Shown in pieces: positions 536-59,600 of a stretch of DNA of 64,000 nt. A program made the position numbers and the translations under genes. The notes beneath the pieces were generated by a model. That model saw only the letters and a list, made by a program, of their open reading frames with translations, was not told the DNA's origin and ran no database searches. Source of the DNA: Ilumatobacteraceae bacterium. Lineage in GTDB: Bacteria; Actinomycetota; Acidimicrobiia; Acidimicrobiales; Ilumatobacteraceae. Location: positions 320 through 64,319 of the forward strand of contig JBIKZO010000001.1 of assembly GCA_044354675.1 (NCBI GenBank). Direction: 5' to 3'. Positions within the stretch are counted from its first letter, which is position 1, and every line of letters begins with the position of its first letter.

Positions 536-3066
<2,531 letters not shown>

Positions 3067-3070
<4 letters not shown>

Positions 3071-41634: not shown

Positions 41635-42777
41635 TCACCCAGCACCAGGTCTGACACGCAACCTTGCGCGAACTCGGCTGAGTGGCTTTTCTACTGCAAA
41701 ATAGACGATTACTGCATACCCAAATATGATCACCAGGGCAAGCAACAACCTGACTTTATTGTTCATAACCAAATTCGCTGGAGAAAGAGCACCAAATACT
41801 AAGACGTGAATCAAATAAACAGAGTATGAAACTAAACCAATAGAACGCAAAATGCGTATCGAGAAGATTTTGTTGGCAAAAGTTCCTGGATAAGAAGCAG
41901 CCATGATGACAAAAGCAGACGCAATTGCTACTGCAGTCAGGCCCCCCTGATAGTTCCAAGAGTCCCCATTGTCAACGGCCCACATGTACCAACTCAAAAA
42001 TATTATTGACGGAGTGAACGTCCAAAAAATTAGTTTTTTGGGTTGTACAATTTTGCTCTTACGATAGACACTTGCTAGTGCTCCCACAAAAAAGGAGTCA
42101 AATCGGAGATCCGTTCTAAAATATAACTGGATCCAGTTTTCCTCAATTCCTCCACTATGAAGAATCGAAATTTTTGCACAGAATGACCAGATAATCAAAG
42201 AACAACTGAGACAAACCAGAAAGCGCTCAATACTGATCTTGGTTGCAAGCCACCTGTGCACTAGCGCTATCACTGCAACTATGAAGTAGAACTGCTCTTC
42301 AACCGACAACGACCAAATAATCCCTAGATGTTGGGATCGTTCTATCTTGGTTATGATCGCCCAATTGATCACAGAAAAAATCGAATAAACAACTGTCGTT
42401 CCAAAAACATACAAGTTGTCACCTGATTTGATCGCCCAAATCAATGCAGTAAGAAGAAAAATAAGAAGTGGTGGCATCAGACGAATTTCACGACGTAAAA
42501 AGAATTTAAAAAAATTTATACTTCCGGTGTCCTGGTGTTCCCTGAGTAGCAGAGCGGTGATCAAAAATCCGCTGAGCACAAAAAACATGTCAACTCCGAT
42601 GAACCCACCCTTGCTGACTGGGTCTATTAATCGTGGCACTGAGGGCCAACTTTCGGCAAGATGAAATCCAAGAACCGCAATGATTGCGATTCCTCGGAAA
42701 CCATCTAGCGAACCCATTCTTTGACTGTCAACTAGCAAGGGTTGAGACTTGTTAAGTGCGTTGTCTCCAAACGGCAT
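41635..42777 (-). CDS. acyltransferase-3 family membrane protein
   Basis: 380 aa. Has LDGFRGIAIIAVLGFH and about 10 TM helices, with no SGNH domain. Convergent with the previous gene across a 29-nt gap. Confidence 0.8.
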   Translation of the reverse strand: MPFGDNALNKSQPLLVDSQRMGSLDGFRGIAIIAVLGFHLAESWPSVPRLIDPVSKGGFIGVDMFFVLSGFLITALLLREHQDTGSINFFKFFLRREIRLMPPLLIFLLTALIWAIKSGDNLYVFGTTVVYSIFSVINWAIITKIERSQHLGIIWSLSVEEQFYFIVAVIALVHRWLATKISIERFLVCLSCSLIIWSFCAKISILHSGGIEENWIQLYFRTDLRFDSFFVGALASVYRKSKIVQPKKLIFWTFTPSIIFLSWYMWAVDNGDSWNYQGGLTAVAIASAFVIMAASYPGTFANKIFSIRILRSIGLVSYSVYLIHVLVFGALSPANLVMNNKVRLLLALVIIFGYAVIVYFAVEKPLSRVRARLRVRPGAG

Positions 42778-46643: not shown

Positions 46644-48206
46644 ATGAGGGCAACCTCCATTGGTCATGCTGGCATTTTGGTGCAAACGCGCCAAGCCACA
46701 ATTGTTTGCGATCCATGGTTTTTGCCTGCTTTTCTCGGATCGTGGTTTGTCTTTCCACGAAACGATCAGTTGTCTCCAGAGTTGATGGCAACAATCGAAT
46801 CTCCCGATTATCTCTACATCTCGCATCAGCATGCTGACCATCTAGACGAACCATGGCTAACAACCCATTTAAATAAAGCAACAAAGGTATTGCTCCCCGA
46901 CTTTGCAACCCGAGAACTCGAACGACGGCTGAGCAAATTGGGCTTCACTAATTTTGTACGCACAGAGAATGGCAAAGAGATAGGCCTTGGAGATGATTTG
47001 ACTATTGCTATCCACGTTGAGAGTGCAATTGCTGATGGCCCCGGTGGTGACTCAGCAATTGTGATCAGTGATGGCGAGTCGCGTCTCGTTAACCAAAACG
47101 ATTGTCGCACGGGAGATCTTGGCGCTCTCACTATGCACGGACCAGTTGACATGCATTGGTTGCAATACAGCGGAGCCATTTGGTACCCCATGGTCTATGA
47201 CGAACCCCGCGAATCACTGATGCAACAAGCGCGCTCCAAGGTTGAAAGCCAATTTGCGCGCTCAATGAAGTACGTATCGTTGGTGGACGCGCGGGTTGTT
47301 GTGCCATCTGCAGGACCACCATGTTTTTTGGATGAAGACTTATTTTCGTCAAACATGATTACTGGAGATGAACTTTCAATATTTCCCGACCAAACAGAGT
47401 TCATTAAGCGCTTAGAAGCCGTTGGCAACGATCGGGCTGCGCTCAACGTCCCTGGCACGACAATCGAAATTTCGCCATCATCAATTGTCGTCACACACCC
47501 AATGAGTGATGATCTCGTGAATCGTCCATTTATCAACAAGGAAGAATATTTGCGTGAGTATCAAGCCGACTGGTCTGAGTGGCTGCGTGATTACAAAGCA
47601 TCATGGCCGCAGCAGCACACAGACTTGCTGACTCAATTGCAGGATTGGTGGCAGCCATTAATGGCGATGGCTCCAACACTGCGAACCGCAATTGGTGGCG
47701 GGTGTTTACTGAAAACTGATGACACAGAGATCTACATCAACTTTGCGAGCGGGCTTGTGGAGTTATTCGCCGATCAGAAATACCGATACCGGTTTGAAAT
47801 TGAGCGTCCGTTGTTGGAAAAGACGGTTGCTGATAGGGCTGTGGATTGGTCTAATTCGCTATTTCTCTCTTGTCGATTCACGGCGTGGCGCGAAGGCGCA
47901 TACAACGAATTTCTATACAACTTTTTCAAAAGCTTGTCGGTTGAGCGAATGCGTCGTGCAGAACAAGAAGCGGTGCGCCGAACAGCGCCAGAAAGTGCGA
48001 GCACTCAACTCTCTGCCGAAATTGAAATTGATGGCTACGTGATGCAGCGGCTATGCCCGCATCGTCAAGCAGACTTGTCGGAGTTTGGGCGCATAGATAA
48101 CGGTTTTGTTGTGTGCGACCTTCACGGTTGGCGGTTCAGTGTGGAAGATGGGCACTGTTCAAATGCGGATGACCGCAAACTCAACATTCGTAAACGAACT
48201 AGCTAA
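46644..48206 (+). CDS. MBL-fold metallo-hydrolase fused to a C-terminal Rieske [2Fe-2S] domain
   Basis: 520 aa. N-terminal SHQHADHLD metallo-beta-lactamase motif. C-terminal CPHRQADL...CDLHGWRF (CxH...CxxH Rieske ligands). Confidence 0.7.
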   Translation: MRATSIGHAGILVQTRQATIVCDPWFLPAFLGSWFVFPRNDQLSPELMATIESPDYLYISHQHADHLDEPWLTTHLNKATKVLLPDFATRELERRLSKLGFTNFVRTENGKEIGLGDDLTIAIHVESAIADGPGGDSAIVISDGESRLVNQNDCRTGDLGALTMHGPVDMHWLQYSGAIWYPMVYDEPRESLMQQARSKVESQFARSMKYVSLVDARVVVPSAGPPCFLDEDLFSSNMITGDELSIFPDQTEFIKRLEAVGNDRAALNVPGTTIEISPSSIVVTHPMSDDLVNRPFINKEEYLREYQADWSEWLRDYKASWPQQHTDLLTQLQDWWQPLMAMAPTLRTAIGGGCLLKTDDTEIYINFASGLVELFADQKYRYRFEIERPLLEKTVADRAVDWSNSLFLSCRFTAWREGAYNEFLYNFFKSLSVERMRRAEQEAVRRTAPESASTQLSAEIEIDGYVMQRLCPHRQADLSEFGRIDNGFVVCDLHGWRFSVEDGHCSNADDRKLNIRKRTS

Positions 48207-48975
48207 TTTCTCCATAGACAAGCACTTGCGTGCCGCGCGGCAGAATGTCGTTGTCCCAAATGAAATCCATTGCTTTAACAGTCACTCGCACGCAGCCGTG
48301 AGATGCAGGATATGCAGGCACGCTCATTGATCCGTGTATGGCAACTCCACCGATGAAATACTTTGGGCGGTAGATCTGGCCAAGGTCACCAATCCACCAA
48401 CCGTCAGGTCGTTCCCTGTCAATTTTGAATGTTCCAACCGGTGTCACTGCTGTTCCCTTGATCATCACGCCAGGAGTATTGCCGTCAGGTTCTTCGTAGC
48501 TTCGGTCGTCACCAGTCGATGCATTCATTACATATGTCGTGATGCCATCTTCTACGAGAAACAGCAACTGTCGCGACTTGTCTACCTCGGCCAATGTGCC
48601 TTCAGTTGTCATCGCGGTCGCTGGTATCGACATTCGCTCCAAGAGGTATGCAGTTGCAGCATTAATGCTGCCCGTGGGTCGAAGTTGAAAGTACTTCTGA
48701 AACGCCATCACTGCTTGAGTGGTTGTGTCATCAAACTTGCCATTCGGATCCGCCAACCAAAAGCCAAGTTCGAGCAATTTGAGTTGTGAAGCTTGAGCAC
48801 TTGGTCCACTGCGTTGACCAGAGGAACTGATACCGGTTTCAACAATTGTTGTAGTGGTGGACGGCGCAACCGTTGTTGACGGAACGCTCTGCGCGTTAGA
48901 CCAAGTTCCGCAGGCTGTCAATGTGCCAAGAGCACCTAGTAACAACATTGCTCGAAAGATAAAACGCTTGTTCAT
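48199..48975 (-). CDS. L,D-transpeptidase lipoprotein with peptidoglycan-binding domain
   Basis: Lipobox LTACG. PG_binding_1-like segment (DDTTTQAVMAFQKYFQL). YkuD catalytic motif HGSMSVPAYPASHGCVRV. Confidence 0.8.
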   Translation of the reverse strand: MNKRFIFRAMLLLGALGTLTACGTWSNAQSVPSTTVAPSTTTTIVETGISSSGQRSGPSAQASQLKLLELGFWLADPNGKFDDTTTQAVMAFQKYFQLRPTGSINAATAYLLERMSIPATAMTTEGTLAEVDKSRQLLFLVEDGITTYVMNASTGDDRSYEEPDGNTPGVMIKGTAVTPVGTFKIDRERPDGWWIGDLGQIYRPKYFIGGVAIHGSMSVPAYPASHGCVRVTVKAMDFIWDNDILPRGTQVLVYGEIS

Positions 48976-49553
48976 GAAAGAGAAATTGGTAATTCAAACC
49001 AAATTGTCAGGCTGTACTTGATGCCGCTTGTAATTGGTGTACTGCCATGCGGATGTGTCACCAAGCTTGGCCATGCCAAAAGTGAACCAACTGGTAGTAG
49101 TGCATTTGTAAAGTTTTGGCGAGGGAACTCCAGCAACGCTCCGTCATAAGTGTCGTTGAGTTTGACGCTTGCCGATACTTGCGCGACGTCGTGATGTTGC
49201 CGCAATTCTTCCTGCCCACCCTTTTCGTATTTGATGATGAATGCATCATTGATCCCGTGATAGTCGATCAGTGGCCAATGTTGTTGTAGTTGCGGCCAGA
49301 TGCGTAAACCCATGTCATCTTGCACTGCTTCAAACAATCGTGGGCTAATTAACGCAAGAGAGATTTCGTGTCCAGGCACTGGGTCACCGGGTTGCGCAGA
49401 AAAACCCCCAGCGGCTTCAGCTGCTCGAATAAGTGCAGTACAAAATTGGGGTGTCCAACAAGACATCACAAATAATTCATCAGCAACTTTGTTTATTGGT
49501 GCACTTTCATCAACCGCATCGACATACCCAAGAATTCGCTCTAAGTCATCCAC
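48972..49553 (-). CDS. 2-oxoglutarate/Fe(II)-dependent oxygenase (prolyl-4-hydroxylase-like)
   Basis: 193 aa with GTG start. HxD (HHDVAQ) ... H (THPHGSTP) ... basic residue (GIKYSL) facial-triad pattern. ATGA overlap with the downstream L,D-transpeptidase gene. Confidence 0.6.
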   Translation of the reverse strand: MDDLERILGYVDAVDESAPINKVADELFVMSCWTPQFCTALIRAAEAAGGFSAQPGDPVPGHEISLALISPRLFEAVQDDMGLRIWPQLQQHWPLIDYHGINDAFIIKYEKGGQEELRQHHDVAQVSASVKLNDTYDGALLEFPRQNFTNALLPVGSLLAWPSLVTHPHGSTPITSGIKYSLTIWFELPISLS

Positions 49554-49649
49554 TCATCTATCGTGACACGCTCAACCCCACATAATGATGAACCTCTACA
49601 AAACCAAGGCGATACATGCCCAATACATCACTTGGTAGGCTTAAAACTC

Positions 49650-50846
49650 ATGAGCCCATTGACTAGAGAAATCCCTCAAATCGAGCTGAGATCAATCTGG
49701 GAAGTCATTCGACTGCGTTGGTGGATCGTGCCATTGTGCCTCGTCGTAAGTGCCGGACTCATGGTCGCCCAAGAAAGCGACATGCAAACGAGTCCTGTTT
49801 CGATTTTGGTCAGCAAAACATATGGTCCCCGAGACGAACTGGCCAATCTTGCTGCATTTGGCGTTGACCCCAACAGTGTTAAAGAGTTTCCAAACTTCCA
49901 AAACCAACTAGCCATTGTTCGCGAATCTGGGCCAAAGCAAGTTTTAAGCTCTCTAGGAGAGTCGGTTGATGTATCTGTAATGCGCACCGAACCACAGGTT
50001 TCGATGTTGGCGACCTCAGACGGTGACGGAAAGCAACTTTTTACGGTCGCTACCAATGGACAGGCAAATTATGTGATCAATTGCTCCGCTCCCAATGAAT
50101 CGACTTGTGACAGTGCGATAGATGTATTCGTTGGTGAAATTGAGTCGGTAAGGCGTGATGCAATGATTGACGGTCTGCGCCAACTACAAACCAGAATTGA
50201 GAGTGTGCTGGGTTCTCTGTCGTCTGCGCAACCACAACTTGAGCTTCAACGCGCATCTATCAATTCGGCAATTGATTCAATAACTGGAAAACTGCAATTC
50301 GTAGATGGAAAATCGGAGGCATCCGGTGAAACAGTATCTACTGTCAAAATTTCAACTTACATATTTGGCTTAGCAGTCGGTTTAATAATCGCACTGTTAA
50401 TTATCCTGCAGCTCACACTGACCGACGACAGAATTCGTTCTCCTAAAAAATTAAGGAACGTGCTTGAATCATCTCAGTTTCTTATCGATTTAACTGCACA
50501 TTCCGCCGCCACAGACTTGAAGTTTGTGCTTGCCGGAATTTTGCATGGCCTTGCTGAAGCAAATTCGACAGATGTTGTTTTTGTCCCAATAGATAACAAC
50601 GCAGAACTTGACAAGTTATTTGAATTAATGGCAGAAGAATCTATTCAACAAGGTCTGGCCATTCAGAAGTCTTCTGCTCTATCTGCATTATCGACTGCAG
50701 AGTTGCTAAATGTGAGCACTAAAAACATTGTTCTTGTCGTAACTAAGCATGCCTCACGATTGACCAACCTTGAGGAATCGCTTTCAAATCTGAAACAATC
50801 TGGAGCACGCGTACTTGGTCTTCTACTTGTTGATTCCCGTATCTAA
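49650..50846 (+). CDS. Wzz/PCP-like chain-length determinant with degenerate BY-kinase-like C-terminal domain
   Basis: Start ATG at 49650 preferred over GTG at 49563, which would leave only 9 nt to the divergent gene. TM1 (WWIVPLCLVVSAGLMV), a roughly 210-aa external helical region, TM2 (YIFGLAVGLIIALLIIL), then a cytoplasmic domain ending IVLVVTKHASRL...GARVLGLLLV. Confidence 0.5.
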   Translation: MSPLTREIPQIELRSIWEVIRLRWWIVPLCLVVSAGLMVAQESDMQTSPVSILVSKTYGPRDELANLAAFGVDPNSVKEFPNFQNQLAIVRESGPKQVLSSLGESVDVSVMRTEPQVSMLATSDGDGKQLFTVATNGQANYVINCSAPNESTCDSAIDVFVGEIESVRRDAMIDGLRQLQTRIESVLGSLSSAQPQLELQRASINSAIDSITGKLQFVDGKSEASGETVSTVKISTYIFGLAVGLIIALLIILQLTLTDDRIRSPKKLRNVLESSQFLIDLTAHSAATDLKFVLAGILHGLAEANSTDVVFVPIDNNAELDKLFELMAEESIQQGLAIQKSSALSALSTAELLNVSTKNIVLVVTKHASRLTNLEESLSNLKQSGARVLGLLLVDSRI

Positions 50847-50857
50847 CCCAGGAAATA

Positions 50858-52696
50858 ATGCAAAATCGCAACCCAACTCGTGAAAAATGGCTACATCGTA
50901 TTGCGCTCTCTACCTCGTTTTATCGCGTGAGTTCTCTCATCCAGTTTGCAATAGACATCGTGACGCTTGTGGTCACATCAATCATTGTTTCCTATGCACG
51001 ATTTATCTACCAGGGTCATCATGATCCGGTGGGAGCCGCTCAGGAATCGGTGCTCAGAATTATTCCAATTGTTGTATTCATCCAGGCTGTAGTTGGTTTT
51101 ATTGTTGGCCTCTATCGACGTAGATGGCGATATGGCAGTTTTGACGAAGTTGCAGGGCTCATTATCACCTCCGTAATTTCAACTTCTATTTTGATGACTG
51201 TCCGATTTTTTGATGATTCAATAAACCCATTTCCGCGAAGTGTCATCTTGGTGGGTGGTTGTGCTGGGCTCTTTTTGATTGCTGCAAATCGTTATATTTG
51301 GCGTTTAATACGAGAGCAACTCCGCCGTCCAACAGAACGAACAGCGGTCAAGATACTGGTCTACGGTGCGGGTGAAGGTGGAATTCAAATGGTGAACACA
51401 ATGCTGCGCAACCCCTCATCGGTTTATTTGCCCATTGGTTTCATTGATGACAATCCCGAAACCCACCGACTCAGCATCTCGGGCGTGCCTGTTTTGGGTG
51501 GGCGCAAAAACCTTGCTGAGGCTCAAGCCAAAACGGGAGCCAGCACACTGCTCATTGCGATTCCATCTGCCGACTCCGAATTGATCAATGCAATTAGCGC
51601 ACTGGCCCAAACACTCAACATGGATGTAAAGATTGTCCCTCCTGTTCAAAACCTCAATGAGCGACCACTTGATCCGAGCGATATCCGTGACCTCACAGAC
51701 GAGGATCTTCTCGGACGTAGAAAAATCCAGATTGATCTTCAACAAATTTCGGAATATTTAGTTAATCGACGCGTATTGGTGACGGGTGCAGGTGGCAGCA
51801 TCGGTAGCGAACTCTGTCGACAACTTGCCCGATTTAATCCTGCCGAGCTGATCATGCTTGATCGTGATGAAAGCGCATTGCATGAAGTTCAGTTGTCAAT
51901 ACACGGTCGCGCACTACTCGACACACCACAGACTGTTCTTGCAGATTTGCGGGATCAAGCAACTATTAATCACATTTTTGAGACCAGAAAGCCAGAAGTT
52001 GTATTCCACGCTGCCGCGCTGAAACATCTACCCCTGCTTGAGCGCTACCCACACGAGGCTTATCAAACGAACGTGCTTGGCACGGCCACGTTGCTAAAGG
52101 CCGCGCAAAAAACCAACGTTCAGGTTTTTATCAATATCTCGACCGACAAAGCAGCAAATCCAATTAGTGTCCTTGGTTACTCGAAACGAATAGCCGAAAG
52201 AGTTACTTCCTATTTCGGACTTCATTCCGATTCTGGCAAATACATCTCGGTTCGATTTGGAAACGTACTTGGCTCCCGAGGCAGTGTGTTGATGTCATTC
52301 AGAGACCAAATTGAAAAGGGTGGACCAGTGACAGTTACCCATCGTGGTGTAACTCGTTACTTCATGACGATTTCGGAAGCAGTTCAACTGGTTATTCAGG
52401 CAGGTGCCATTGGCAACAATGGTGAGGTACTGGTTTTGGATATGGGAAATCCTGTGAGTATTTATGACGTGGCCGCACAACTGGTGCGAAATTCTCGCAA
52501 GCAAGTTGAAATTGAAATAGTTGGTTTACGGTCTGGCGAAAAAGTACACGAGGAGCTATTCGGGGATGGTGAAGTAGATGCGCGACCAGAGCATCCACTT
52601 ATTTCTCAAGTGCCAGTAAAACCAATTGAGCTTGACCTGCTCGTTGCGTCTCCGACAGATGCAGCAGCTTTTATGATTTCGGCTTCAGACTCTTAA
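50858..52696 (+). CDS. membrane-anchored polysaccharide biosynthesis protein CapD/WbpM/PglF-type (UDP-sugar 4,6-dehydratase)
   Basis: 612 aa. Four N-terminal TM helices, a first Rossmann motif (VYGAGEGG), then an SDR domain with VTGAGGSIGSEL and STDKAANP. Confidence 0.85.
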   Translation: MQNRNPTREKWLHRIALSTSFYRVSSLIQFAIDIVTLVVTSIIVSYARFIYQGHHDPVGAAQESVLRIIPIVVFIQAVVGFIVGLYRRRWRYGSFDEVAGLIITSVISTSILMTVRFFDDSINPFPRSVILVGGCAGLFLIAANRYIWRLIREQLRRPTERTAVKILVYGAGEGGIQMVNTMLRNPSSVYLPIGFIDDNPETHRLSISGVPVLGGRKNLAEAQAKTGASTLLIAIPSADSELINAISALAQTLNMDVKIVPPVQNLNERPLDPSDIRDLTDEDLLGRRKIQIDLQQISEYLVNRRVLVTGAGGSIGSELCRQLARFNPAELIMLDRDESALHEVQLSIHGRALLDTPQTVLADLRDQATINHIFETRKPEVVFHAAALKHLPLLERYPHEAYQTNVLGTATLLKAAQKTNVQVFINISTDKAANPISVLGYSKRIAERVTSYFGLHSDSGKYISVRFGNVLGSRGSVLMSFRDQIEKGGPVTVTHRGVTRYFMTISEAVQLVIQAGAIGNNGEVLVLDMGNPVSIYDVAAQLVRNSRKQVEIEIVGLRSGEKVHEELFGDGEVDARPEHPLISQVPVKPIELDLLVASPTDAAAFMISASDS

Positions 52697-53987
52697 CCGA
52701 AGTCTCTGATTGAGTCTCAGCGGTCTCCGATCGCACCACGCCAGCGATAGCTGCGACAAATAGCGCCCAAAGAAAATGGTTGCCAACGAAAAAACTTTCC
52801 TGAGTTGAAATAGCCATAACAAAAAACATGATTGCTGGAGTCCATTGGCCTGCAGTGGTTTGCACAAGAGTTGTCAGGTGGCGATGTCCGCCATAAACAA
52901 TCGCACCAATGAGCAGCGCGGCACCAACTACACCCCCACCCAGCAAAACATCCATGTACCCGCTGTGTGACCAACCGGTATAAGTAAATGACCACCAGAG
53001 GTCCCGTCTCAAAAAAACTGACGATCTCCACGCTGACATCCAACCCCACCCAATAAATGGTCTTTCAAGAAATCCGGTCCAGCTGTAGTGCCAAATTGCT
53101 GAGCGGCCATTGAAATCAAAAGTCTCATCAAAGATGCCGAGCACAATACTTTGAAGTCGTACTGTTGTCCACGTCAGCACAGTGGCGCTAAAAACAAATG
53201 ACGGGAAAACAAATCGAGAAAGTGCGCGCTCATCAAGTCTCTTTCTCCGAATAAGTGATCGAACAACAGTCCAAAACGCCCACACCGCAGCGAATACGAT
53301 CGCTCCGCCAACAGATGTGTTTGATCGTGAATGAAACAGCATCACCGCACCAAAAAGGATGACATCAACCAATATTGCGATCAATGTAATGGGCCACTTT
53401 TTGCCTCGACGCATAATGACGATCCACAACAACGCGCTTGCCGCCAAACAACTCACCATTGCTACTGGGGCAAGAGAGTTTCGATTGAAGTAAATACCAA
53501 CCCAATTGCCATTTTGGTCAACTGAATTGCTCCAATTATTTGCGATTGCATAACGCGACCACAACAGTCCAGGCTGCATTGCAACAACAACAAGTGCAAG
53601 CTGCTCGAGTAATGAAAAACTTCGAGCGAGATATACACCAGTGAGAAATGTGACGCACAATGTTGTGGATTCAATAATTGTGTGTTGGCCGAAAGTTGCC
53701 CACGTTGTTGACAACCACATCCAGCCACAAAACAAACCAAGCAAACCTACGGGTCCAATCAACGATGAGCGAGGCACACGCCTGTAGCCGAGCAGGATTA
53801 ATGCTGGAATCTGAGCTGCAATGAAGGTAAGAAACTGTGCCGAAGCCACTTCCGGTTGAGCTACCAATGCACTTGCGTACCACAGGCTATAAACGGGGCC
53901 TTGGGTCAGTGTGAAGAGCAGTACAACGACATACGCGTATTCACACCATCGCAACAGCGAACTCATACGGTTGGTCGTGACATGCAT
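52671..53987 (-). CDS. O-antigen ligase/polymerase family (Wzy_C / WaaL-like) membrane protein
   Basis: 438 aa with about 11-12 TM helices and a large late external loop (FDFNGRSAIWHYSWTGFLERPFIGWGW) typical of the Wzy_C domain. The 3' end overlaps the capD-like gene by 26 nt (convergent). Confidence 0.65.
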   Translation of the reverse strand: MHVTTNRMSSLLRWCEYAYVVVLLFTLTQGPVYSLWYASALVAQPEVASAQFLTFIAAQIPALILLGYRRVPRSSLIGPVGLLGLFCGWMWLSTTWATFGQHTIIESTTLCVTFLTGVYLARSFSLLEQLALVVVAMQPGLLWSRYAIANNWSNSVDQNGNWVGIYFNRNSLAPVAMVSCLAASALLWIVIMRRGKKWPITLIAILVDVILFGAVMLFHSRSNTSVGGAIVFAAVWAFWTVVRSLIRRKRLDERALSRFVFPSFVFSATVLTWTTVRLQSIVLGIFDETFDFNGRSAIWHYSWTGFLERPFIGWGWMSAWRSSVFLRRDLWWSFTYTGWSHSGYMDVLLGGGVVGAALLIGAIVYGGHRHLTTLVQTTAGQWTPAIMFFVMAISTQESFFVGNHFLWALFVAAIAGVVRSETAETQSETSVKSLKPKS

Positions 53988-54047: not shown

Positions 54048-54557
54048 ATGTCGGATGCTGAAATTGATCAAGAACAGCTCATCAAAGAGCTCATTGCGGA
54101 ATCGTTTGCGCTGCGCACAAAGTCGGAGCACTTAAGCCAATATGTAGAGACCAAAATTGCCGACTTGGTCAAGACCCGTAGCGAATTGAGCACAATTAAG
54201 GGCGAAAGCGAACTTGAAATCAGACGATTGAAGAGCGAAAGCGAACTTGAAATCAGACGATTGAAGAGCGAAAGCGAACTTGAAATCAGACGATTGAAGA
54301 GCGAAAGCGAACTTGAAATCAGACGATTGAGAGCCGGTATTGAAACCGCTAACCAACAGCGCAATGAGCTTGAGGCCAAACTTGATTCGCTCATCAGCGA
54401 GCACGAAGCCCTAGGAGAAGCGAACCTACAAATGACGAGCCAGCGTGACAGGCTCCGAAATCGAATGGCTCAGATAGATGCCTCTCCCGAATATCGGCTT
54501 GCCAAACGCTTGCGCCGAATTTTTGGGGTGATTCTTAAGGACGCGCCAACACAGTGA
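54048..54557 (+). CDS. small coiled-coil protein with 11-aa tandem repeats and basic C-terminal tail
   Basis: 169 aa, charged and helical throughout. ESELEIRRLKS repeated four times. Tail SPEYRLAKRLRRIFGVIL. The stop overlaps the start of the next gene (GTGA). Confidence 0.65.
   Translation: MSDAEIDQEQLIKELIAESFALRTKSEHLSQYVETKIADLVKTRSELSTIKGESELEIRRLKSESELEIRRLKSESELEIRRLKSESELEIRRLRAGIETANQQRNELEAKLDSLISEHEALGEANLQMTSQRDRLRNRMAQIDASPEYRLAKRLRRIFGVILKDAPTQ
54204..54335 (+). repeat. in-frame tandem repeat, 33-bp unit, about 4 copies
   Basis: Unit gaaagcgaacttgaaatcagacgattgaagagc is read three times without mismatch (54204-54302). A fourth copy diverges only in its last bases (gagagcc). 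Confidence 0.95.
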
Positions 54558-55276
54558 CTCGTCAATTTCCAGTCATCATCAACGTAAGAGACCGGCTCGA
54601 GCCGCTTCGCGATTTAGTTACATGGCTCGAACAACTGGGTCAAGAAAACATTTGGTTGTGCGATAACGACAGTACATATGCGCCGATGGTCGAATACCTG
54701 CACACCACACAACACCACGTACTTTTTAACGGGCTCAATTTGGGTCATCGAGCACCATGGCTTAGTGGTCTCGTGACCGAGCTTGGACTTGACTCTCACT
54801 TCATAGTCACCGATCCAGACGTTGTGCCTACGCAAGAATGCCCAACAGACGTGCTGGATTTTTTTCATGACACACTCATCCAGTACCCAACTATTGACAA
54901 AGTTGGTTTTAGTCTGCGCTTAGATGACTTACCAGCACATTACGCGCACCGCGACGATGTGATTTTGTGGGAGTCGCAGTTTTGGAAGAATATTCATCCA
55001 TCTGGTTTTTTTGTTGCCGAGATTGATACGACCTTCGCGATGTACAGACCGGGTGAGCATCACCAAAACAATCATGCGCTGCGTTCTAATCCCCCCTACA
55101 CAGCAAGACATATGCCGTGGTATCAAGACTCGAATAATCCAACAGAAGAACAGTCTTACTATGTGGAGCATGCTGACTCACTCATTATCAATTGGGATAA
55201 AAAGGTCTTGTCAGCATCACTTCGAGCACACCTCATGCAATTACGAAATCAACATTCGGCCGCAACTAGTCGATAG
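54554..55276 (+). CDS. GT-A-fold glycosyltransferase-like protein (family uncertain)
   Basis: 240 aa. N-terminal FPVIINVRDR...WLCDNDST and IVTDPDV (DxD-like) resemble nucleotide-diphospho-sugar transferases. No confident family assignment. Confidence 0.4.
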   Translation: MTRQFPVIINVRDRLEPLRDLVTWLEQLGQENIWLCDNDSTYAPMVEYLHTTQHHVLFNGLNLGHRAPWLSGLVTELGLDSHFIVTDPDVVPTQECPTDVLDFFHDTLIQYPTIDKVGFSLRLDDLPAHYAHRDDVILWESQFWKNIHPSGFFVAEIDTTFAMYRPGEHHQNNHALRSNPPYTARHMPWYQDSNNPTEEQSYYVEHADSLIINWDKKVLSASLRAHLMQLRNQHSAATSR

Positions 55277-55295
55277 TGACTAGGCTCAATACACT

Positions 55296-56498
55296 ATGTC
55301 TCAGCAGGCAATCGTCGTTGACTCGGTTTCTAAAAACTTTCGTCTCTACCACGAACGCAATCGCTATATCAAAGCAGCAATCTTGCGTGGACGAAGAGCC
55401 AAGTATGAAGAATTTTGGGCTCTTGATGATGTCTCATTTGAAGTAGACCACGGGTCAACACTCGGAATCATCGGATCCAATGGTTCCGGAAAAAGCACAA
55501 TGCTCAAATGTCTCACTGGTATCTACCGGCCCGACAAAGGCAAGGTTTCCGTTAATGGAAACATCGCGGCATTGCTCGAGCTCGGTGCTGGCTTTCACCC
55601 TGAATTATCGGGTCGAGAAAATGTGTATCTCAACGCGGCGATCTTGGGATTATCTAAAAAAGCTGCTGAGCGACAATTCGAGAGCATCGTCGAATTCGCC
55701 GGAATTGAACGCTTTATTGACACCGCTGTAAAGAACTATTCGTCCGGAATGATGATCCGACTTGGCTTTTCCGTCGCTGCACACGTCGAACCAGAAATTT
55801 TGCTCATTGATGAAGTCCTTACGGTTGGCGATCAATCTTTTCAAAGAAAAAGTAGTGAGAAAATCGAGCAGTTTCGTCGTGAAGGTCGCACGATCGTAGT
55901 AGTCAGTCATGGCCTTGGTTCGGTTCAACAACTCTGCAAAGAGGTCATCTGGCTTGAAAAAGGGTGTCTCAAAATGCGTGGACCAGCTGCAGAAGTAATT
56001 GCTGCCTACACCGGTGAAAGCTACGTTCAGCACACCGCTAAAGACGCTGATCTTCGCGAACGTTGGGGAACAGAAGATGCCCATATCGAAAGTGTCCTAC
56101 TTACTGATATGTCTGGTCAGTCAATAGAGCGAGTCGAAACCAATGCAGCGATGCGCGTGACCACCCACATCACAGCTCGCACACCACTTCGTGCTCCAGT
56201 GATCAAAATTTATATCAGTAAAGTTGATGGCACCGTTGTATGGTCAACAACGTCGAAGCGTGCAAACTCATCACTTGAAAATGTTCCAGATTCGGTAACT
56301 GCAACAATTGATATTCCACACCTTCCACTACTAGAAGGCGCTTATTTCATCTCGGTTGCATGCACCGATGTGACCAGCACGACCGAGTATGACCATTGTC
56401 AAAATTGGGTGAGATTTGATGTCCACCAAAATGACTTGTTCGAAGAAGGTCTTGTCGCTGTTCCTTCAACGTGGAACATCGAGCGTCATGCAAAGTAG
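55296..56498 (+). CDS. wzt: polysaccharide ABC exporter ATP-binding protein (Wzt/TagH-type) with C-terminal extension
   Basis: 400 aa. Walker A GSNGSGKST, signature YSSGM, Walker B LLIDEVL. About 150 aa of beta-rich C-terminal domain beyond the NBD, as in Wzt carbohydrate-binding modules. Confidence 0.8.
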   Translation: MSQQAIVVDSVSKNFRLYHERNRYIKAAILRGRRAKYEEFWALDDVSFEVDHGSTLGIIGSNGSGKSTMLKCLTGIYRPDKGKVSVNGNIAALLELGAGFHPELSGRENVYLNAAILGLSKKAAERQFESIVEFAGIERFIDTAVKNYSSGMMIRLGFSVAAHVEPEILLIDEVLTVGDQSFQRKSSEKIEQFRREGRTIVVVSHGLGSVQQLCKEVIWLEKGCLKMRGPAAEVIAAYTGESYVQHTAKDADLRERWGTEDAHIESVLLTDMSGQSIERVETNAAMRVTTHITARTPLRAPVIKIYISKVDGTVVWSTTSKRANSSLENVPDSVTATIDIPHLPLLEGAYFISVACTDVTSTTEYDHCQNWVRFDVHQNDLFEEGLVAVPSTWNIERHAK

Positions 56499-56502
56499 TT
56501 TT

Positions 56503-57312
56503 CTATACCTCTTCGGCGAGACGTCGTGAGAATTTGACGAAAATCGCCCAACCAACAACAAACGAAATAACAGAGACACATATCAAATAAACAATATGGC
56601 CGGCCTGAGGGGGTCGACCTGAATACAGCAGTTGACGAAAAGACAGAACAAACATGGCCATTGGATTCCAATGAAAAATAAATTCAAGGTATGGATGTAT
56701 TTGCCCCTCTAATTGATCCGGTGGATAAATGATGGGGGTAGCAAAAAACAACACTTGAATGATAATCGTCCAGAGATACCGCAAGTCTCGGAAAAAAACT
56801 GCACCAACGGAAACTGCCAGCGCGAATCCTGAGGAATACACTGCAAGTAACAGCATCAATAAGAATGCAAGAGGGATCCACTGCAAAATTGGACTACCCA
56901 CCAAAATCAGCCCAACGCACAGTAGCGACATCTCGATGCAGAATTGAACAAACGAAAAAATTACCTGGGCAAAGACGAGAGTCTCCCATGCAAAGAATAC
57001 TTTGCGCACCAAACCTGCGTTGCCAATGAGCGAACCAATTCCCAGACTGGTGACTAGCGAGAAAAACCCCCAAGGTAACAGCCCTGTGAGTAAGTACAAC
57101 GCGTAATTGTTGAGTCCTGATGGATCCCCTATTGGCGCTTGAGAACCAAAAACGACACCAAATACAAACCAATAAATGGCCATGCTTGAGAGTGGATTAA
57201 GCATTGACCAAGTCCACCCCAAAAATGATCGACGGTACTTAGCTCGCAATTCACGAAGTGTCAGATTCCAAAGCAAGTTCTTTGAACGATGAAGTTGACT
57301 GATTTGGTTCAC
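56503..57312 (-). CDS. wzm: ABC-2 type polysaccharide exporter permease (Wzm/TagG-type)
   Basis: 269 aa. N-terminal LTLRELRAKYRRSFLGWTWSMLNPL signature and six TM helices. Convergent with wzt across a 4-nt gap. Confidence 0.85.
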   Translation of the reverse strand: MNQISQLHRSKNLLWNLTLRELRAKYRRSFLGWTWSMLNPLSSMAIYWFVFGVVFGSQAPIGDPSGLNNYALYLLTGLLPWGFFSLVTSLGIGSLIGNAGLVRKVFFAWETLVFAQVIFSFVQFCIEMSLLCVGLILVGSPILQWIPLAFLLMLLLAVYSSGFALAVSVGAVFFRDLRYLWTIIIQVLFFATPIIYPPDQLEGQIHPYLEFIFHWNPMAMFVLSFRQLLYSGRPPQAGHIVYLICVSVISFVVGWAIFVKFSRRLAEEV

Positions 57313-57385
57313 GGGAATCCTTGTCTAAGACGAGCAACTATGAAAACAACATTAGTAGGGGTTCCTCAATCGTTTGGTCAACGAG

Positions 57386-57468
57386 TGGGCGAGGGGGGAC
57401 TTGAACCCCCACGTCCTTTCGAACACTGGCACCTGAAGCCAGCGCGTCTGCCATTTCGCCACTCGCCC
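57386..57468 (-). tRNA. tRNA-Leu (anticodon CAG)
   Basis: Hand-folded. Acceptor GGGCGAG/CTCGCCC, anticodon stem CTGGC/GCCAG with loop UUCAGGU, long variable arm, TPsiC GGTTCAAGTCC. CCA is not encoded. Confidence 0.9.
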
Positions 57469-57538
57469 GAGAGACGCTTTGACGATAGCAATGAACCACC
57501 ATTTATACACCGCGACCACGGGAACTTAGTGCTGGACT

Positions 57539-58042
57539 ATGATCGTTGCGATGAGCAGCAGTGTTACTCGAGTGGTAGATCCATTAGATCTGCAAGATGC
57601 GTCTCGCGAGCGACTACTCGCAGAAATCGGTCTACTTCAACACCGATACAGTCTCACAGACCCTGGTCGACTCGAATCTCGTATTCGCGAATTAGAGGCC
57701 CAATTAGGGGCTTCAGAAAATCTTCGAGTTGCTGAACATGACGCACAAGTTACCCGATATGACGCACAAGTTACCCGATATGACGCACAAGTTATTGAAC
57801 TTCAAAACGAAATAGATAATTTGAAAATGAATCTCTTGCATGTACGTGACTATGCACGGGGGTGCGCAGCCGAACTTGGCGAAGCTCGTACGTTTTTTGA
57901 AATTCACATTGCAGATGCAGACCGAAAAGTCCGTCAAGCACGAAGAAAGAATCAACAAATTTACGCAACTCGTACATGGAAAATGGGTCGCTTGGTCATG
58001 CTGCCCATTCGAATAGTTCGTCGCATCATCAAAGTCGGCTGA
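57539..58042 (+). CDS. small coiled-coil protein with 7-aa tandem repeats and basic C-terminal tail (paralogue of 54048-54557)
   Basis: 167 aa (start possibly at MSSSV, 57551). Charged and helical, with DAQVTRY repeats. Tail TRTWKMGRLVMLPIRIVRRII. A GT2 gene follows after 7 nt. Confidence 0.6.
   Translation: MIVAMSSSVTRVVDPLDLQDASRERLLAEIGLLQHRYSLTDPGRLESRIRELEAQLGASENLRVAEHDAQVTRYDAQVTRYDAQVIELQNEIDNLKMNLLHVRDYARGCAAELGEARTFFEIHIADADRKVRQARRKNQQIYATRTWKMGRLVMLPIRIVRRIIKVG
57738..57795 (+). repeat. in-frame tandem repeat, 21-bp unit, about 2.7 copies
   Basis: Unit atgacgcacaagttacccgat is read twice without mismatch, followed by a partial third copy atgacgcacaagtta. Confidence 0.9.
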
Positions 58043-58049
58043 CGCAGTC

Positions 58050-59600
58050 GTGCCATTGTTTAGCGTCATCACACCTGTCTACAATCCGCCAATTGACGCA
58101 TTTGAGGCGTGCATTGAGTCGGTGTTCGCCCAAACCCATACCGATTGGGACTGGTGCTTAGTTGATGATGGTTCAACTAACCCACAGATTCGCAAGATCA
58201 TGGAGCGGATCGCCCGCAAAGACAAACGAGTGCGAATAATGTTCAGACCCAAGAACGGCGGAATCGTCGCGGCATCACAAGATGCGCTCGACATGGCAAC
58301 GGGTGAGTTCATTGCTTTTCTTGACAATGATGACACGCTGCATCCGAATGCGCTAAGTCTTGTGTCCGCAACGCTTGCGAATGACCCTACAGTCGATTAT
58401 GTCTATAGCGACGAAAACAAGATCAATGAAAAAGGCAGGCCGTATGATCTGTTTCGCAAGCCTGCTTTTGACCCAATTCGGTTATTGGGTCAAAACTATT
58501 GCAGTCATTTTTCAGTAATTCGCTCATCGCTGATCGATGAGGTTGGTGGTTTTCGCACTGGATTTGAGGGTTCGCAGGATTACGACTTGATCTTGCGAAT
58601 TACAGAACGTGCACGCACCATCGCACATATTCCAGAAGTGTTGTACCACTGGCGGGCAATACCTGGGTCTGCTGCAATCCAGTCGGATGCCAAGCCCTAC
58701 GCATTGATTTCGGCTGAGCGCGCCGTCAAGGACCACTTAAAGCGCATCAAGATTGATGCGACTGTTTCGGTTTCCGATGATGGGTTTATTCAGGTGCGAC
58801 CAACGTTGAGCAATCCACCACCAAAAGTATCGATCATTATCCCTACTCGTGGCGACGCTCAGCGTGTTTGGGGTTTAGAGACATGTTTGGTTGATAATGC
58901 TGTTACAAGCATTCTCAAAAAATCGACTTATCCGAACTATGAAATCGTTGTTGTTCTGGATGTACAGAATGGAGAACCTAAAAACCCAATTTCGATTCCT
59001 GACGATCCCCGTTTCAACATTGTGCCCTATGACCTACCCTTCAACTTTTCAGACAAGTGCAATGTGGGAGTTCTGCAATCAACTGGTGAAGTCGTTATTT
59101 TGCTCAATGACGACACAGAAGTAATTGATTCTGACTGGATTGAGACATTGGTATCGATGCTGCAATTTCCTGATGTTGCCATGGTCGGTCCAATGTTGCT
59201 TCTTGAAGACTCGCGCATTCAAAGCGCTGGACACACCAATATTCCCTCACCACACAACATTGGAAACGGATTGTCATCTAGGCAAACAGGAAAATTTGGA
59301 ATGTTTGGTGTTACGCGCCGTGTCAGCGGTGTTACTGGAGCATGCGCTGCGATTCATCGCTCAATCTACGAAGAGCTCGGTGGTTTCTCGATCGACTTCC
59401 CCGCCTGTTTTAATGATCTAGATTTCGGCAACAAAATTCTTGAAGCTGGCTACCACATTGTGTGGACACCACTGGCTCGGATGTACCACTTTGAATCGCT
59501 GACTCGAGACCCAACGGTTGCACCACACGAAATGGCGATGCTTGAAAAACGATGGAAGCGCTACTTCGGCAAAGAAGACTATTCTCGACAACCCGCATAG
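58050..59600 (+). CDS. two-domain glycosyltransferase family 2
   Basis: 516 aa. First GT2 module FSVITPVYNPP, LVDDGSTN and FLDNDD. Second module VSIIIPTRGD and LLNDDTEV. Confidence 0.8.
   Translation: MPLFSVITPVYNPPIDAFEACIESVFAQTHTDWDWCLVDDGSTNPQIRKIMERIARKDKRVRIMFRPKNGGIVAASQDALDMATGEFIAFLDNDDTLHPNALSLVSATLANDPTVDYVYSDENKINEKGRPYDLFRKPAFDPIRLLGQNYCSHFSVIRSSLIDEVGGFRTGFEGSQDYDLILRITERARTIAHIPEVLYHWRAIPGSAAIQSDAKPYALISAERAVKDHLKRIKIDATVSVSDDGFIQVRPTLSNPPPKVSIIIPTRGDAQRVWGLETCLVDNAVTSILKKSTYPNYEIVVVLDVQNGEPKNPISIPDDPRFNIVPYDLPFNFSDKCNVGVLQSTGEVVILLNDDTEVIDSDWIETLVSMLQFPDVAMVGPMLLLEDSRIQSAGHTNIPSPHNIGNGLSSRQTGKFGMFGVTRRVSGVTGACAAIHRSIYEELGGFSIDFPACFNDLDFGNKILEAGYHIVWTPLARMYHFESLTRDPTVAPHEMAMLEKRWKRYFGKEDYSRQPA

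Follow-up and report, generated by a model that had tools for sequence, protein, structure and literature searches.

Introduction

The S-layer glycan locus of Geobacillus stearothermophilus NRS 2004/3a, which is responsible for a methyl-capped polyrhamnan, encodes a Wzm/Wzt transporter whose Wzt bears a carbohydrate-binding module (CBM), together with WsaB, a transferase of the Wzy_C type. Where such systems are known, the C-terminal domain of Wzt recognises a terminal cap, a strategy marked by the presence of a coiled-coil protein (PMC11231755; PMC9445017). The terminators characterised so far are all joined covalently to the distal end of the stalk (PMC11231755). The stalk of WbdD is about 20 nm long, and engineered changes in its length alter the length of the chain (PMC5082667). 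In the Helicobacter pylori α1,3/4-fucosyltransferases FutA and FutB, the number of heptad repeats acts as a glycan ruler by setting the size class of the glycan acted upon (PMC2583950).

Gene content of the locus

We analysed a stretch of 64,000 nucleotides (hereafter the window) from a freshwater bacterium of the Ilumatobacteraceae (Acidimicrobiia). It contains a locus, syntenic across sister species, that an earlier note had described as two small helical proteins, each followed by a glycosyltransferase-type gene, on either side of a Wzt/Wzm exporter. The coordinates and sizes of the two ORFs are reproduced: protein A has 169 residues (54048-54557, plus strand) and protein B has 167 residues (57539-58042, plus strand). 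Likewise as described are the GTGA overlap (54554-54557) between A and the next ORF, X (240 residues; 54554-55276, plus strand), the 7-nt gap between B and its downstream neighbour, and the position of wzt, with its C-terminal domain, and wzm between A and B.

Wzt (55296-56498, plus strand) matches Pfam ABC_tran (E = 1e-21) and Wzt_C (E = 5e-20; 72.3 bits against a cut-off of 30.4), and its top PDB match is the full-length Wzt of Aquifex aeolicus (PDB entries 8dku and 7k2t; residues 8-372, E = 2e-62). The ABC-2 permease Wzm is encoded on the minus strand (56503-57312; Pfam ABC2_membrane, E = 4e-17) and also matches the NCBIfam family galactan_ABC_perm, at an E of 2e-17 that is under the family cut-off; the best PDB matches for the transporter are WzmWzt and TarGH. 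Judged by these domains, the locus encodes an ABC-transporter-dependent pathway whose Wzt carries a CBM. Between wzm and B there is also a gene for tRNA-Leu (57385-57468, minus strand), which the earlier description of the locus lacks.

The gene that starts 7 nt 3′ of B (58050-59600, plus strand) encodes a dual-GT2 glycosyltransferase (GT2x2) with two Pfam Glycos_transf_2 stretches (E = 4e-40). Its top PDB match is K4 chondroitin polymerase (E = 9e-23), and it probably polymerises a repeat unit with two linkages. Directly downstream of B-GT2x2 lies fhaA, the adjacent cluster being FhaA-PstP-PknB-CrgA. On the other side of A, the minus strand encodes a Wzy_C-family membrane protein of the O-antigen ligase, polymerase or O-oligosaccharyltransferase type (52671-53987; Pfam Wzy_C, E = 2e-12). 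This gene occupies the same position in the related loci L001-L007 and L029-L031, and it belongs to the conserved core, which is WzyC-A-X-Wzt-Wzm. Wherever A-like, B-like or X genes were recovered with their surroundings, these were glycan loci, which supports the reading in the earlier note.

Protein A and the adjacent putative enzyme X

The AlphaFold2 model of A (pLDDT 92.6) bears out its description as a helical protein: residues 2-145 form one continuous helix of 144 residues, about 21.6 nm long and comparable in length to the WbdD stalk (PMC5082667), followed by a kink at S146-P147 and a second helix (147-165) in a short basic tail. Fourier analysis gave a peak at a period of 3.6 (p = 0.003), which reflects general helix amphipathicity, and no clean signal at 3.5 or 3.67; the 11-residue repeat unit of A could form a single α-helix rather than a coiled coil. 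We recovered 306 homologues of A. [quoted passage not shown] The tail of A has a net charge of +4 and a hydrophobic moment (muH) of 0.62, within the range of the cationic, apparently amphipathic stalk tails as a whole (net charge +4 to +7, muH 0.40-0.67, shuffle p 0.006-0.21). Neither A nor B has a Pfam or NCBIfam catalytic domain above threshold, and no terminator (methyltransferase, kinase or Kdo transferase) was found on an A or B stalk in the genome of the window.

The similarity between A and B that the earlier note had seen at both ends is not significant (BLASTP E = 0.41; hhalign profile-profile probability 0.7%, E = 0.08), and homology between them is not demonstrable from their sequences. 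What survives is a likeness of the tails: a motif S-R-S/T-Y/W-R/K-I-G is common to B and the more divergent A orthologues (empirical p near 3e-4, with no correction for the scoring of eight A orthologues), but the tail of the window's own A is not significant.

A transferase gene does follow B, with its two GT2 domains; after A, X is of glycosyltransferase type at the fold level only. X has no sequence match in Pfam, NCBIfam or the PDB. Its model (pLDDT 92.4) weakly resembles the GT-A, or nucleotide-diphospho-sugar transferase, fold: it gives Foldseek matches to GT-A transferases with E of 6e-5 to 6e-4 and TM scores of only 0.35-0.48, and CMP-Kdo synthetases score equally with the GT-A enzymes. 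D37-N38 and D87-P88-D89, the latter a conserved DxD, are invariant in X. Its 476 homologues are of about 240 residues, and no fusion of X, to A or otherwise, occurs among the 120 matches listed. X lies directly 5′ of wzt in every locus, L029 and L030 included. X has no accompanying A in L030, and L029 has A-X but no B-GT2; the pairings are therefore not obligatory.

Protein B and its methyltransferase-bearing relatives

Protein B probably starts at M5 (57551), because its orthologues point there. Only about 17 residues precede its stalk, and its conserved motifs are DASRERLLAEIG, RDYAxGxAAELGE and SRTWKxGRxxMLPxR. In every sister genome B is an intact ORF beside GT2x2, and the three motifs are strongly kept across species, at an overall identity of 45-53% for B versus 81-87% for the adjacent GT2x2. 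A profile search of 1.84e9 proteins with B returned only 52 clusters (at 50% identity), nearly all of 83-204 residues and matching through to the C-terminus; against the PDB, the profile gave chance coiled-coil matches only.

Three of these clusters, and one fragment, are fusions in which a Methyltransf_23 head precedes the stalk and tail; the headless form is the majority (roughly 45 of the 52). The stalk carries the methyltransferase head in L012-L024. In 10 of the 12 loci examined (L023, which is cut off, lies outside this set) the fusion is encoded directly 5′ of a GT2x2 orthologue that is 53-56% identical to that of the window; in L022 and L024 the GT2 gene 3′ of the fusion is only 33-37% identical to it. 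Taken together, the GT2x2 orthologues encoded after methyltransferase-stalk genes span 53-58% identity. The contig of the fusion also holds wzt in eight of the 12 loci and wzm in seven, and L013 carries rmlABCD as well. The top PDB match of one fusion (P0388) is the putative methyltransferase 3cc8 (phmmer, E = 4e-23), and the same search gave no match to WbdD at E ≤ 1. Sequence comparison thus shows homology between B and the stalk-and-tail part of these methyltransferase-stalk proteins, which are encoded upstream of GT2x2 orthologues, and B so appears to be a headless terminator stalk. The same homology links the locus to the known coiled-coil-terminator strategy (PMC11231755).

The distribution of the head bears on the role of X. 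X is present and the methyltransferase head absent in the window, L001, L003, L004, L005, L030 and L031, whereas A and X are absent from L012-L024, where the head is present. As the two never occur together, X is a candidate replacement terminator, that is, a putative chain-capping transferase. GT137 of Klebsiella pneumoniae O4, a novel, unclassified terminating glycosyltransferase, offers a precedent (PMC11231755).

Repeat number varies between near-identical strains

Both stalks contain in-frame tandem repeats of the unit sizes given in the earlier note. In A, a 33-bp unit encoding SESELEIRRLK, six of whose 11 residues are charged, is present in 4.2 copies (54198-54334, plus strand; TRF, 98% match). 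In B, a 21-bp unit encoding the heptad (H/Y)DAQVTR is present in 2.7 copies (57738-57794, plus strand; TRF, 100% match).

Homologues of A have lengths of 136, 147, 158 and 169 residues, corresponding to one to four units in a protein that is otherwise 99-100% identical; others with variant units reach 198 residues, which extends the range from one to about 6.6 units. The clearest pair is the window and L009, which are 99.97% identical over 15.2 kb, with three SNPs, and of which L009 has three A units, one fewer. Homologues of B have two to seven heptads (160, 167, 174, 181 and 188 residues), again in sequences that are otherwise 99-100% identical, and P0126 is B minus one heptad and otherwise identical. 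Repeat number is thus truly polymorphic among near-identical strains; the earlier note had set its proposal against the case of invariant repeats, and this variation removes that objection. Perfect arrays can collapse in short-read assemblies, so that some copy numbers may be underestimates, and the contig of L010 ends inside the array.

Repeats have also arisen independently in distant orthologues, at the central spacer in the A of L031 (21 bp, 3.6 copies) and the B of L003 (21 bp, 2.6 copies), the two alignable cases on which a common central site rests. P0377, P0374 and P0397 have in-frame repeats in multiples of seven residues in their stalk regions. All of the expansions found are whole multiples of seven or 11 residues and lie within the variable stalk spacer. 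The A genes of sister species are mostly without repeats.

A possible ruler and its alternatives

By analogy with the rulers already described, we infer that A and B control chain length and probably represent stand-alone forms of the molecular ruler. In its full form, the proposal is that A and B are cytoplasmic, membrane-tethered stalks of an ABC-dependent, termination-coupled glycan assembly line whose chain length is set by repeats; on this we are evenly divided. B would correspond, without a head, to the stalk and the tail nearest the membrane in a methyltransferase-stalk terminator of WbdD-like architecture, with the GT2x2 polymerase encoded 7 nt downstream as its partner. A, whose translation is coupled to that of X, would provide a rod some 21 nm long, and X would be the best candidate to add the chain-end cap read by the carbohydrate-binding domain of Wzt. 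Partners would dock at the conserved stalk ends, with the basic C-terminal tail lying at the membrane and the polymerase and the N-terminus at the far end, and the variable central spacer would fix the distance from polymerisation to capping and so the modal chain length. Each 33-bp unit (11 residues) would correspond to about 1.65 nm of stalk and each 21-bp unit (seven residues) to about 1.05 nm. Changes in the number of units in the spacer repeats would outpace point mutation by far, giving length variants at the level of strains.

These observations might instead be read with A and B as adaptors that recruit soluble transferases to the membrane or help them to oligomerise, and that measure nothing. 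The central spacer would then be unconstrained, so that length variants produced by slippage would be neutral and tolerated. The stalks without an enzyme head, the unpaired X of L030 and A-X of L029, the mostly repeat-free A genes of sister species and the position of the spacers as the least conserved parts, as expected of unconstrained linkers, all agree with this. However, membrane recruitment would not call for a rod as long as about 20 nm whose distal N-terminus is strongly conserved, B derives from the stalk of terminator-type proteins or has a common ancestor with it, the expansions keep to multiples of seven or 11 residues in the variable spacer and, where alignable, to the same central site, and engineered stalk length alters chain length in both WbdD and FutA/FutB (PMC5082667, PMC2583950). 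We consider adaptors without a measuring role possible but somewhat doubtful.

It is unlikely, in our judgement, that B is a functionless or regulatory remnant of head loss, with length set by the polymerase or by the stoichiometry of polymerase and terminator, and with A-X as an unrelated accessory pair such as a side-branch transferase and its own tether. Headless B does look derived relative to the fusions and evolves fast next to GT2x2, but a remnant would hardly be the majority form, with its three motifs kept across species and its ORF intact in every sister genome. The position of B-GT2x2 directly upstream of fhaA raises a further reading, in which A and B are cytoskeletal or cell-division coiled coils (DivIVA/FilP/Scy-like) of the FhaA-PstP-PknB-CrgA cluster rather than glycan genes. 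A has a weak, sub-threshold match to Filament and B to SMC and FcmC (E of 0.002-0.009), but these fall far under the curated cut-offs. Moreover, the methyltransferase fusions of B-like stalks have GT2x2, Wzm, Wzt and rml genes as neighbours, inspection of the flanking ORFs, which covered L013 and L016, showed no adjacent fhaA, and A is translationally coupled to X within the wzt operon. A division role is accordingly very improbable.

Returning to the ruler, we also put forward, tentatively and with more doubt than belief, a further step: that the ruler has been freed from its enzymes as separate stalks which dock them non-covalently (X at the N-terminus of A, the polymerase at the base of B), and that hypermutable tandem repeats, which preserve the register, make stalk length a contingency trait. 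Co-existing freshwater strains would then show different modal glycan lengths, which could serve, for example, in escape from phages or grazers.

Comparison with described systems

The locus shares with that of G. stearothermophilus NRS 2004/3a a Gram-positive ABC-dependent pathway, a CBM-bearing Wzt and a Wzy_C-family transferase, and the likeness extends to the rml genes and methyltransferase terminator of related loci such as L013. Unlike here, the terminator methyltransferase of G. stearothermophilus is part of the multidomain protein WsaE, and we know of no free-standing, repeat-variable stalk proteins in that system.

With the WbdD-WbdA-Wzm-Wzt systems of Escherichia coli O9a and K. pneumoniae O3, the locus has in common an ABC transporter whose Wzt bears a CBM that reads, or here would read, the cap, a multi-transferase polymerase that is a separate polypeptide recruited, here putatively, near the membrane, and a helical stalk about 20 nm long. 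The WbdD stalk ends in an amphipathic region that associates with the membrane, and the tails of the stalks here may do likewise. The related loci with an N-terminal methyltransferase on the stalk, directly 5′ of the polymerase gene, resemble WbdD/WbdA further, although these proteins have no sequence match to WbdD. In contrast to O9a and O3, the stalks of the window are two and have no catalytic head, the polymerase is of GT2 rather than GT4 type, the host is a monoderm actinobacterium and tandem repeats make the length of the stalks vary in nature. In WbbB of K. pneumoniae O12 and Raoultella terrigena and in the K. pneumoniae O4 and O7 systems, terminator, coiled-coil and glycosyltransferase modules are similarly shuffled among one or several polypeptides, and GT2 polymerase modules come after a coiled coil there as they do after a stalk here (PMC11231755). 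There, however, the coiled coil is not a polypeptide of its own as it is here, and X is unlike GT99 or GT137, judged by their descriptions.

FutA and FutB of H. pylori offer the closest parallel for the repeats: 21-bp, in-frame heptad repeats that change in copy number from strain to strain and also within strains, by slippage or recombination, and which adjoin C-terminal amphipathic basic helices, membrane-anchoring in that case. The idea of a slippage-tunable, repeat-encoded glycan ruler, which the earlier note had taken to be undescribed, is therefore not new (PMC2583950). The fucosyltransferase repeats lie inside a GT10 enzyme and govern the chain lengths that it decorates rather than termination or export, with no coupling to a Wzt CBM, whereas A and B each have an ORF and a stop codon to themselves, and one of them uses an 11-residue unit. 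What is new is the free-standing stalk polypeptide, present twice, in a termination-coupled ABC pathway.

Organization of the glycan-export locus

The genes for the predicted stalk protein A (54048–54557, 169 aa), the GT-A-like protein X (54554–55276, 240 aa), Wzt (55296–56498), Wzm (56503–57312, minus strand), the second predicted stalk protein B (57539–58042, 167 aa) and the dual-GT2 glycosyltransferase GT2x2, the probable polymerase (58050–59600, 516 aa), lie where the earlier note had placed them; A and X do overlap by GTGA, and 7 nt do separate B from the gene that follows it. GT2x2 carries two Glycos_transf_2 domains and Wzm an ABC2_membrane domain (Pfam). The carbohydrate-binding domain (CBD) proposed for the C-terminal part of Wzt is borne out: the protein combines ABC_tran and Wzt_C (Pfam; E 5e-20 for Wzt_C), and its residues 8–372 align with full-length Aquifex aeolicus Wzt, CBD included (8dku/7k2t; E 2e-62). 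The scanned 29–48 kb of the window yielded neither a methyltransferase nor a kinase terminator; two ORFs there have no Pfam match.

A scan of one genome per species recovered the locus in seven freshwater Ilumatobacteraceae/Acidimicrobiia MAGs, and the longer contigs are fully syntenic, in the order PCP-like, Polysacc_synt_2 dehydratase, Wzy_C (minus), A, X, Wzt, Wzm (minus), B, GT2x2, FhaA, PstP. The FhaA–PstP–PknB–TrpG–CrgA block 3′ of GT2x2 is the cluster conserved among Actinobacteria. Across sister species, A (59–61% identity) and B (45–53%) diverge far faster than X (87%), Wzt (92%), Wzm (83%) and GT2x2 (81–87%); in the orthologue alignments the N- and C-terminal parts of A and B are conserved, with a conservation of only 0.01–0.2 in the central segment. 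A tRNA-Leu(CAG) gene (57385–57468, minus strand) separates wzm from B. As tRNA-Leu and fhaA are neighbours in other Actinobacteria, the B–GT2x2 pair may be an insertion at this junction. The 148-aa ORF at 57289–57735 (plus strand) is an antisense translation of this tRNA (GGLEPPRPFEHWHLKPARLPFRHSPE), and the database ORFs of two B relatives (P0374 and the long ORF of L004) begin with the same translated tRNA, a gene-calling artefact.

Beside the ABC-transporter pathway, a Wzy_C-family membrane protein is encoded at 52671–53987 (minus strand). In a monoderm host this protein recalls O-oligosaccharyltransferases such as WsaB, the enzyme of Geobacillus S-layer glycosylation, so that the glycan acceptor could, by analogy, be a protein instead of a lipid or the wall. 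In the sister genome L005 its gene is only 36% identical, compared with 72–76% in the other sister genomes, which suggests an allele replacement there. The 427-aa protein (361 aa per JGI) encoded at 49563–50846 (plus strand) has no Pfam match and weakly matches CpsC-type chain-length determinants (TIGR01006, E 0.001); at 45–50% identity between sister species, compared with 80–90% for its neighbours, it is the third fast-evolving gene of the cluster. Immediately beside the glycan cluster (48199–49553, minus strand) are genes for an L,D-transpeptidase (YkuD and PG_binding_1) and a weakly matched 2OG-Fe(II) oxygenase, both annotated through contig L008, which is 100% identical to the window; the two keep this position in sister genomes, possibly a sign of a connection with the cell wall. 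Two AT3-family acyltransferases, one of them fused to an SGNH domain, are encoded about 8 kb upstream of the cluster (39590–41605, plus strand, and 41635–42777, minus strand) and may O-acylate a surface glycan.

Repeat polymorphism in A and B

The in-frame tandem repeats noticed in both genes were recovered by Tandem Repeats Finder: a 33-bp unit in A (54198–54334, 4.2 copies, 98% match) encoding SESELEIRRLK, and a 21-bp unit in B (57738–57794, 2.7 copies, 100% match) encoding (H/Y)DAQVTR. The earlier note had staked its reading on repeat number varying among relatives, and it does vary, from one to seven units on near-identical backgrounds. The first 120 A homologues listed (74–95% identical) fall into two length series, of 136/147/158/169 aa and 154/165/176/187/198 aa; SESELEIRRLK is present in one, two, three or four copies in A proteins that are otherwise 99–100% identical, and the longer arrays are composed of distinguishable unit variants (SESEREIGQLK, SESEREIERLK and others). 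B homologues contain two to seven HDAQV(A/T)x heptads (160/167/174/181/188 aa), and one of them, P0126, is the B of the window minus one heptad and otherwise identical. Contig L009, from another metagenome, differs from the window by three substitutions in 15.2 kb, yet has three A units, not four, so that units are gained or lost faster than point mutations arise.

The A genes of the sister species contain no array. In L031, from a lineage farther away (X 59% identical), the A orthologue contains a 21-bp array of its own, of 3.6 copies, encoding TQELTQR, at the same central site; B of the sister-species contig L003 has an independent 21-bp array of 2.6 copies encoding LERQIVQ, and remote members of the B family contain EEARAQA three times (P0377), VGELQQQ three times (P0374) or a 14-residue duplication (P0397). 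Since the length of each of these recurrent repeats is an exact multiple of 7 or 11 residues, helical phase would be roughly kept. A larger event is seen in P0123 (a B homologue of 226 aa), where about 48 residues spanning the heptads and the RDYARGCAAELGEARTF motif are present twice, through a natural duplication on a larger scale or an assembly error. The 19-kb metagenome contig L010 starts inside the 33-bp array (its position 1 corresponds to about 54235 in the window) and is 100% identical elsewhere, a break consistent with within-sample copy-number heterogeneity or with an unresolvable array.

Models of A and X

The AlphaFold2 model of A (shallow alignment, pLDDT 92.6) is an unbroken helix from residue 2 to 145, followed by a kink at S146–P147 and a short helix (147–165). 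At 1.5 Å per residue the rod measures about 21.6 nm and grows by about 1.65 nm per 11-residue unit; natural alleles would span roughly 17–26 nm. If the model holds, a helix of such length cannot stand alone unless it is a single α-helix stabilised by charge; otherwise it must oligomerise as a coiled coil. The helical character noted for this small, highly charged protein is thus predicted, while the hendecad period noted with it does not come out cleanly: six of the 11 residues of the unit are charged, the hydrophobic L5, I7 and L10 give no textbook a/d or a/d/h seam, and global Fourier analysis, applied to heptad versus hendecad packing, gave a 3.6-residue amphipathic signal only. This leaves a hendecad coiled coil as a plausible arrangement, not an established one. 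A ends in a cationic, amphipathic tail (PEYRLAKRLRRIFGVILKD; µH 0.62, net charge +4).

X had been described as glycosyltransferase-type. It has no Pfam, NCBIfam, PHROG or PDB sequence match, whether searched as a single sequence or as a profile, and a lead came only from fold comparison. A Foldseek search with its model (pLDDT 92.4) gave weak GT-A matches (E 6e-5 to 6e-4, TM 0.35–0.48), namely B4GALNT1, RmlT, heparosan and chondroitin synthases, TarS, GalNAc-T1 and SunS; CMP-Kdo synthetases, of the nucleotide-diphospho-sugar transferase fold, score equally. D37-N38 and D87-P88-D89 are invariant in X, for which the most fitting description is a GT-A-like enzyme, as yet unclassified. Its family is well conserved (476 matches of about 240 aa), and no fusion was found among the 120 homologues listed of these 476.

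X lies immediately 5′ of wzt in all loci seen, including L029, where the B–GT2x2 pair is non-adjacent. L030 has X but no A gene, with a gap of only 137 bp to the Wzy_C gene, which argues against a strict A–X unit. X and the methyltransferase head described below never occur together: X loci have a headless B, and fusion loci have neither A nor X. A Wzt with a carbohydrate-binding module (CBM) implies a chain cap (PMC9445017, PMC11231755). From this implication, the adjacency to wzt and the mutual exclusion with the head, X appears to be the best candidate for the capping enzyme of this lineage. The divergence ratios of the Wzt NBD and CBD, taken as a proxy for a differing cap, overlap between X loci and methyltransferase loci.

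B is related to methyltransferase-bearing stalks

The resemblance between A and B reported in the earlier note is not significant (BLASTP E 0.41, hhalign probability 0.7%), and the B-tail HMM matched only the divergent A orthologues of L007 and L029; we do not retain paralogy as a claim. When 1.84e9 representative proteins were searched exhaustively with the profile of B, only 52 clusters came back, nearly all of 83–204 aa, with matches extending to the C-terminus and three common motifs: DASRERLLAEIG, L-x-x-RD-x-A-x-G-x-AAE-x-GE and SRTWK-x-GR-x-x-x-LP-x-R. Most of the family is headless. In three clusters (P0380, P0388, P0397) and the fragment P0402, a B-like stalk and tail follow a SAM-dependent methyltransferase at the N-terminus (Methyltransf_23, E 1e-13 to 1e-17).

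A metagenome scan for these fusions gave 17 loci, 12 of which were searched with the proteins of the window. The fusion gene is directly followed by an orthologue of GT2x2 (53–56% identity) in ten of the 12; in L022 and L024 the GT2 gene at this position is merely 33–37% identical. A full-length wzt (48–57% identical) is on the same contig in eight and wzm in seven. In L013, for instance, the order is Ugd, Wzm, a 189-aa ORF, Wzt, RmlA/B/D/C, methyltransferase-stalk, GT2x2, GHMP kinase, nucleotidyltransferase and GT2; the 189-aa ORF (2708–3277, minus strand) has no Pfam match and is unrelated to A, B or X. A head, stalk and basic tail beside a multi-GT polymerase and a CBM-Wzt transporter correspond to the arrangement described for WbdD/WbdA of E. 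coli O9a (PMC11231755, PMC5082667), although the methyltransferase-stalk proteins are not WbdD by sequence. Judged by homology and synteny with these fusions, B is a free-standing, headless form of a terminator-type stalk.

Alternative explanations

Short-read assemblers can collapse perfect arrays near the read length, so that some copy numbers may be underestimates, and the repeats might be assembly artefacts. This is insufficient as a full explanation and we reject it as such: arrays of non-identical units cannot collapse in this way, and single alleles recur on 10–18 contigs, which disfavours a purely artefactual origin.

The stalks themselves could be read otherwise. B as a remnant left by loss of the head is a disfavoured reading, since most family members lack a head and still have the three conserved motifs. 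We also rejected A and B as cytoskeletal proteins of the neighbouring division cluster, the matches being sub-threshold and contradicted by synteny and fusions, which favour glycan loci. The alternative that is most difficult to set aside, as L029 and L030 show the pairings to be facultative, is that A and B are mere recruitment or oligomerisation adaptors with neutral spacer polymorphism; we consider it less probable than the ruler.

Proposed mechanism

Starting from the locus composition, the helix model of A, the kinship of B with terminator-type stalks in sequence and gene order, and the repeat polymorphism, a ruler can be proposed for which we infer by analogy the oligomeric state, membrane binding, protein contacts, X activity and effect on glycan length. 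A and B would be anchored to the membrane through their basic tails. B would recruit the dual-GT2 polymerase, as the membrane-proximal region of WbdD recruits WbdA, and A would hold X about 20 nm away, so that only chains long enough to reach X would be capped, then recognised by the CBD of Wzt and exported. Each unit gained or lost would shift the distance by 1.05 or 1.65 nm. Engineered insertions and deletions in the WbdD stalk alter that distance (PMC5082667), and natural variation in heptad number has such an effect in H. pylori FutA/FutB (PMC2583950). The interpretation of the earlier note is thus borne out in part: repeat number varies and B is akin to terminator stalks, while kinship of A with B is not retained and ruler function is argued by analogy.

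Comparison with known rulers

Coiled-coil rulers are the accepted means of fixing glycan chain length in ABC-transporter pathways and, to our knowledge, stalk length in the characterised examples has been varied only by engineering. In every characterised ruler of these pathways the terminating enzyme is fused to the stalk (PMC11231755). New here are stalks as free-standing polypeptides without a catalytic head, two per locus and each coupled to a transferase gene; a natural allelic series of stalk length (one to seven units) within an ABC pathway of the termination-coupled type; a clear evolutionary connection between headed and headless forms, sister loci keeping a methyltransferase head on the same stalk; and an unclassified transferase family tied to wzt (X), probably a new family linked to chain capping. 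Should the stalks indeed be rulers, one could test directly whether a ruler operates non-covalently, how heads are lost and replaced in evolution, and whether glycan length changes fast as an ecological trait among the abundant, uncultured Actinobacteria of fresh water. CBM-Wzt pathways and coiled-coil rulers were already known, as was the tuning of a ruler by repeats in H. pylori FutA/FutB.
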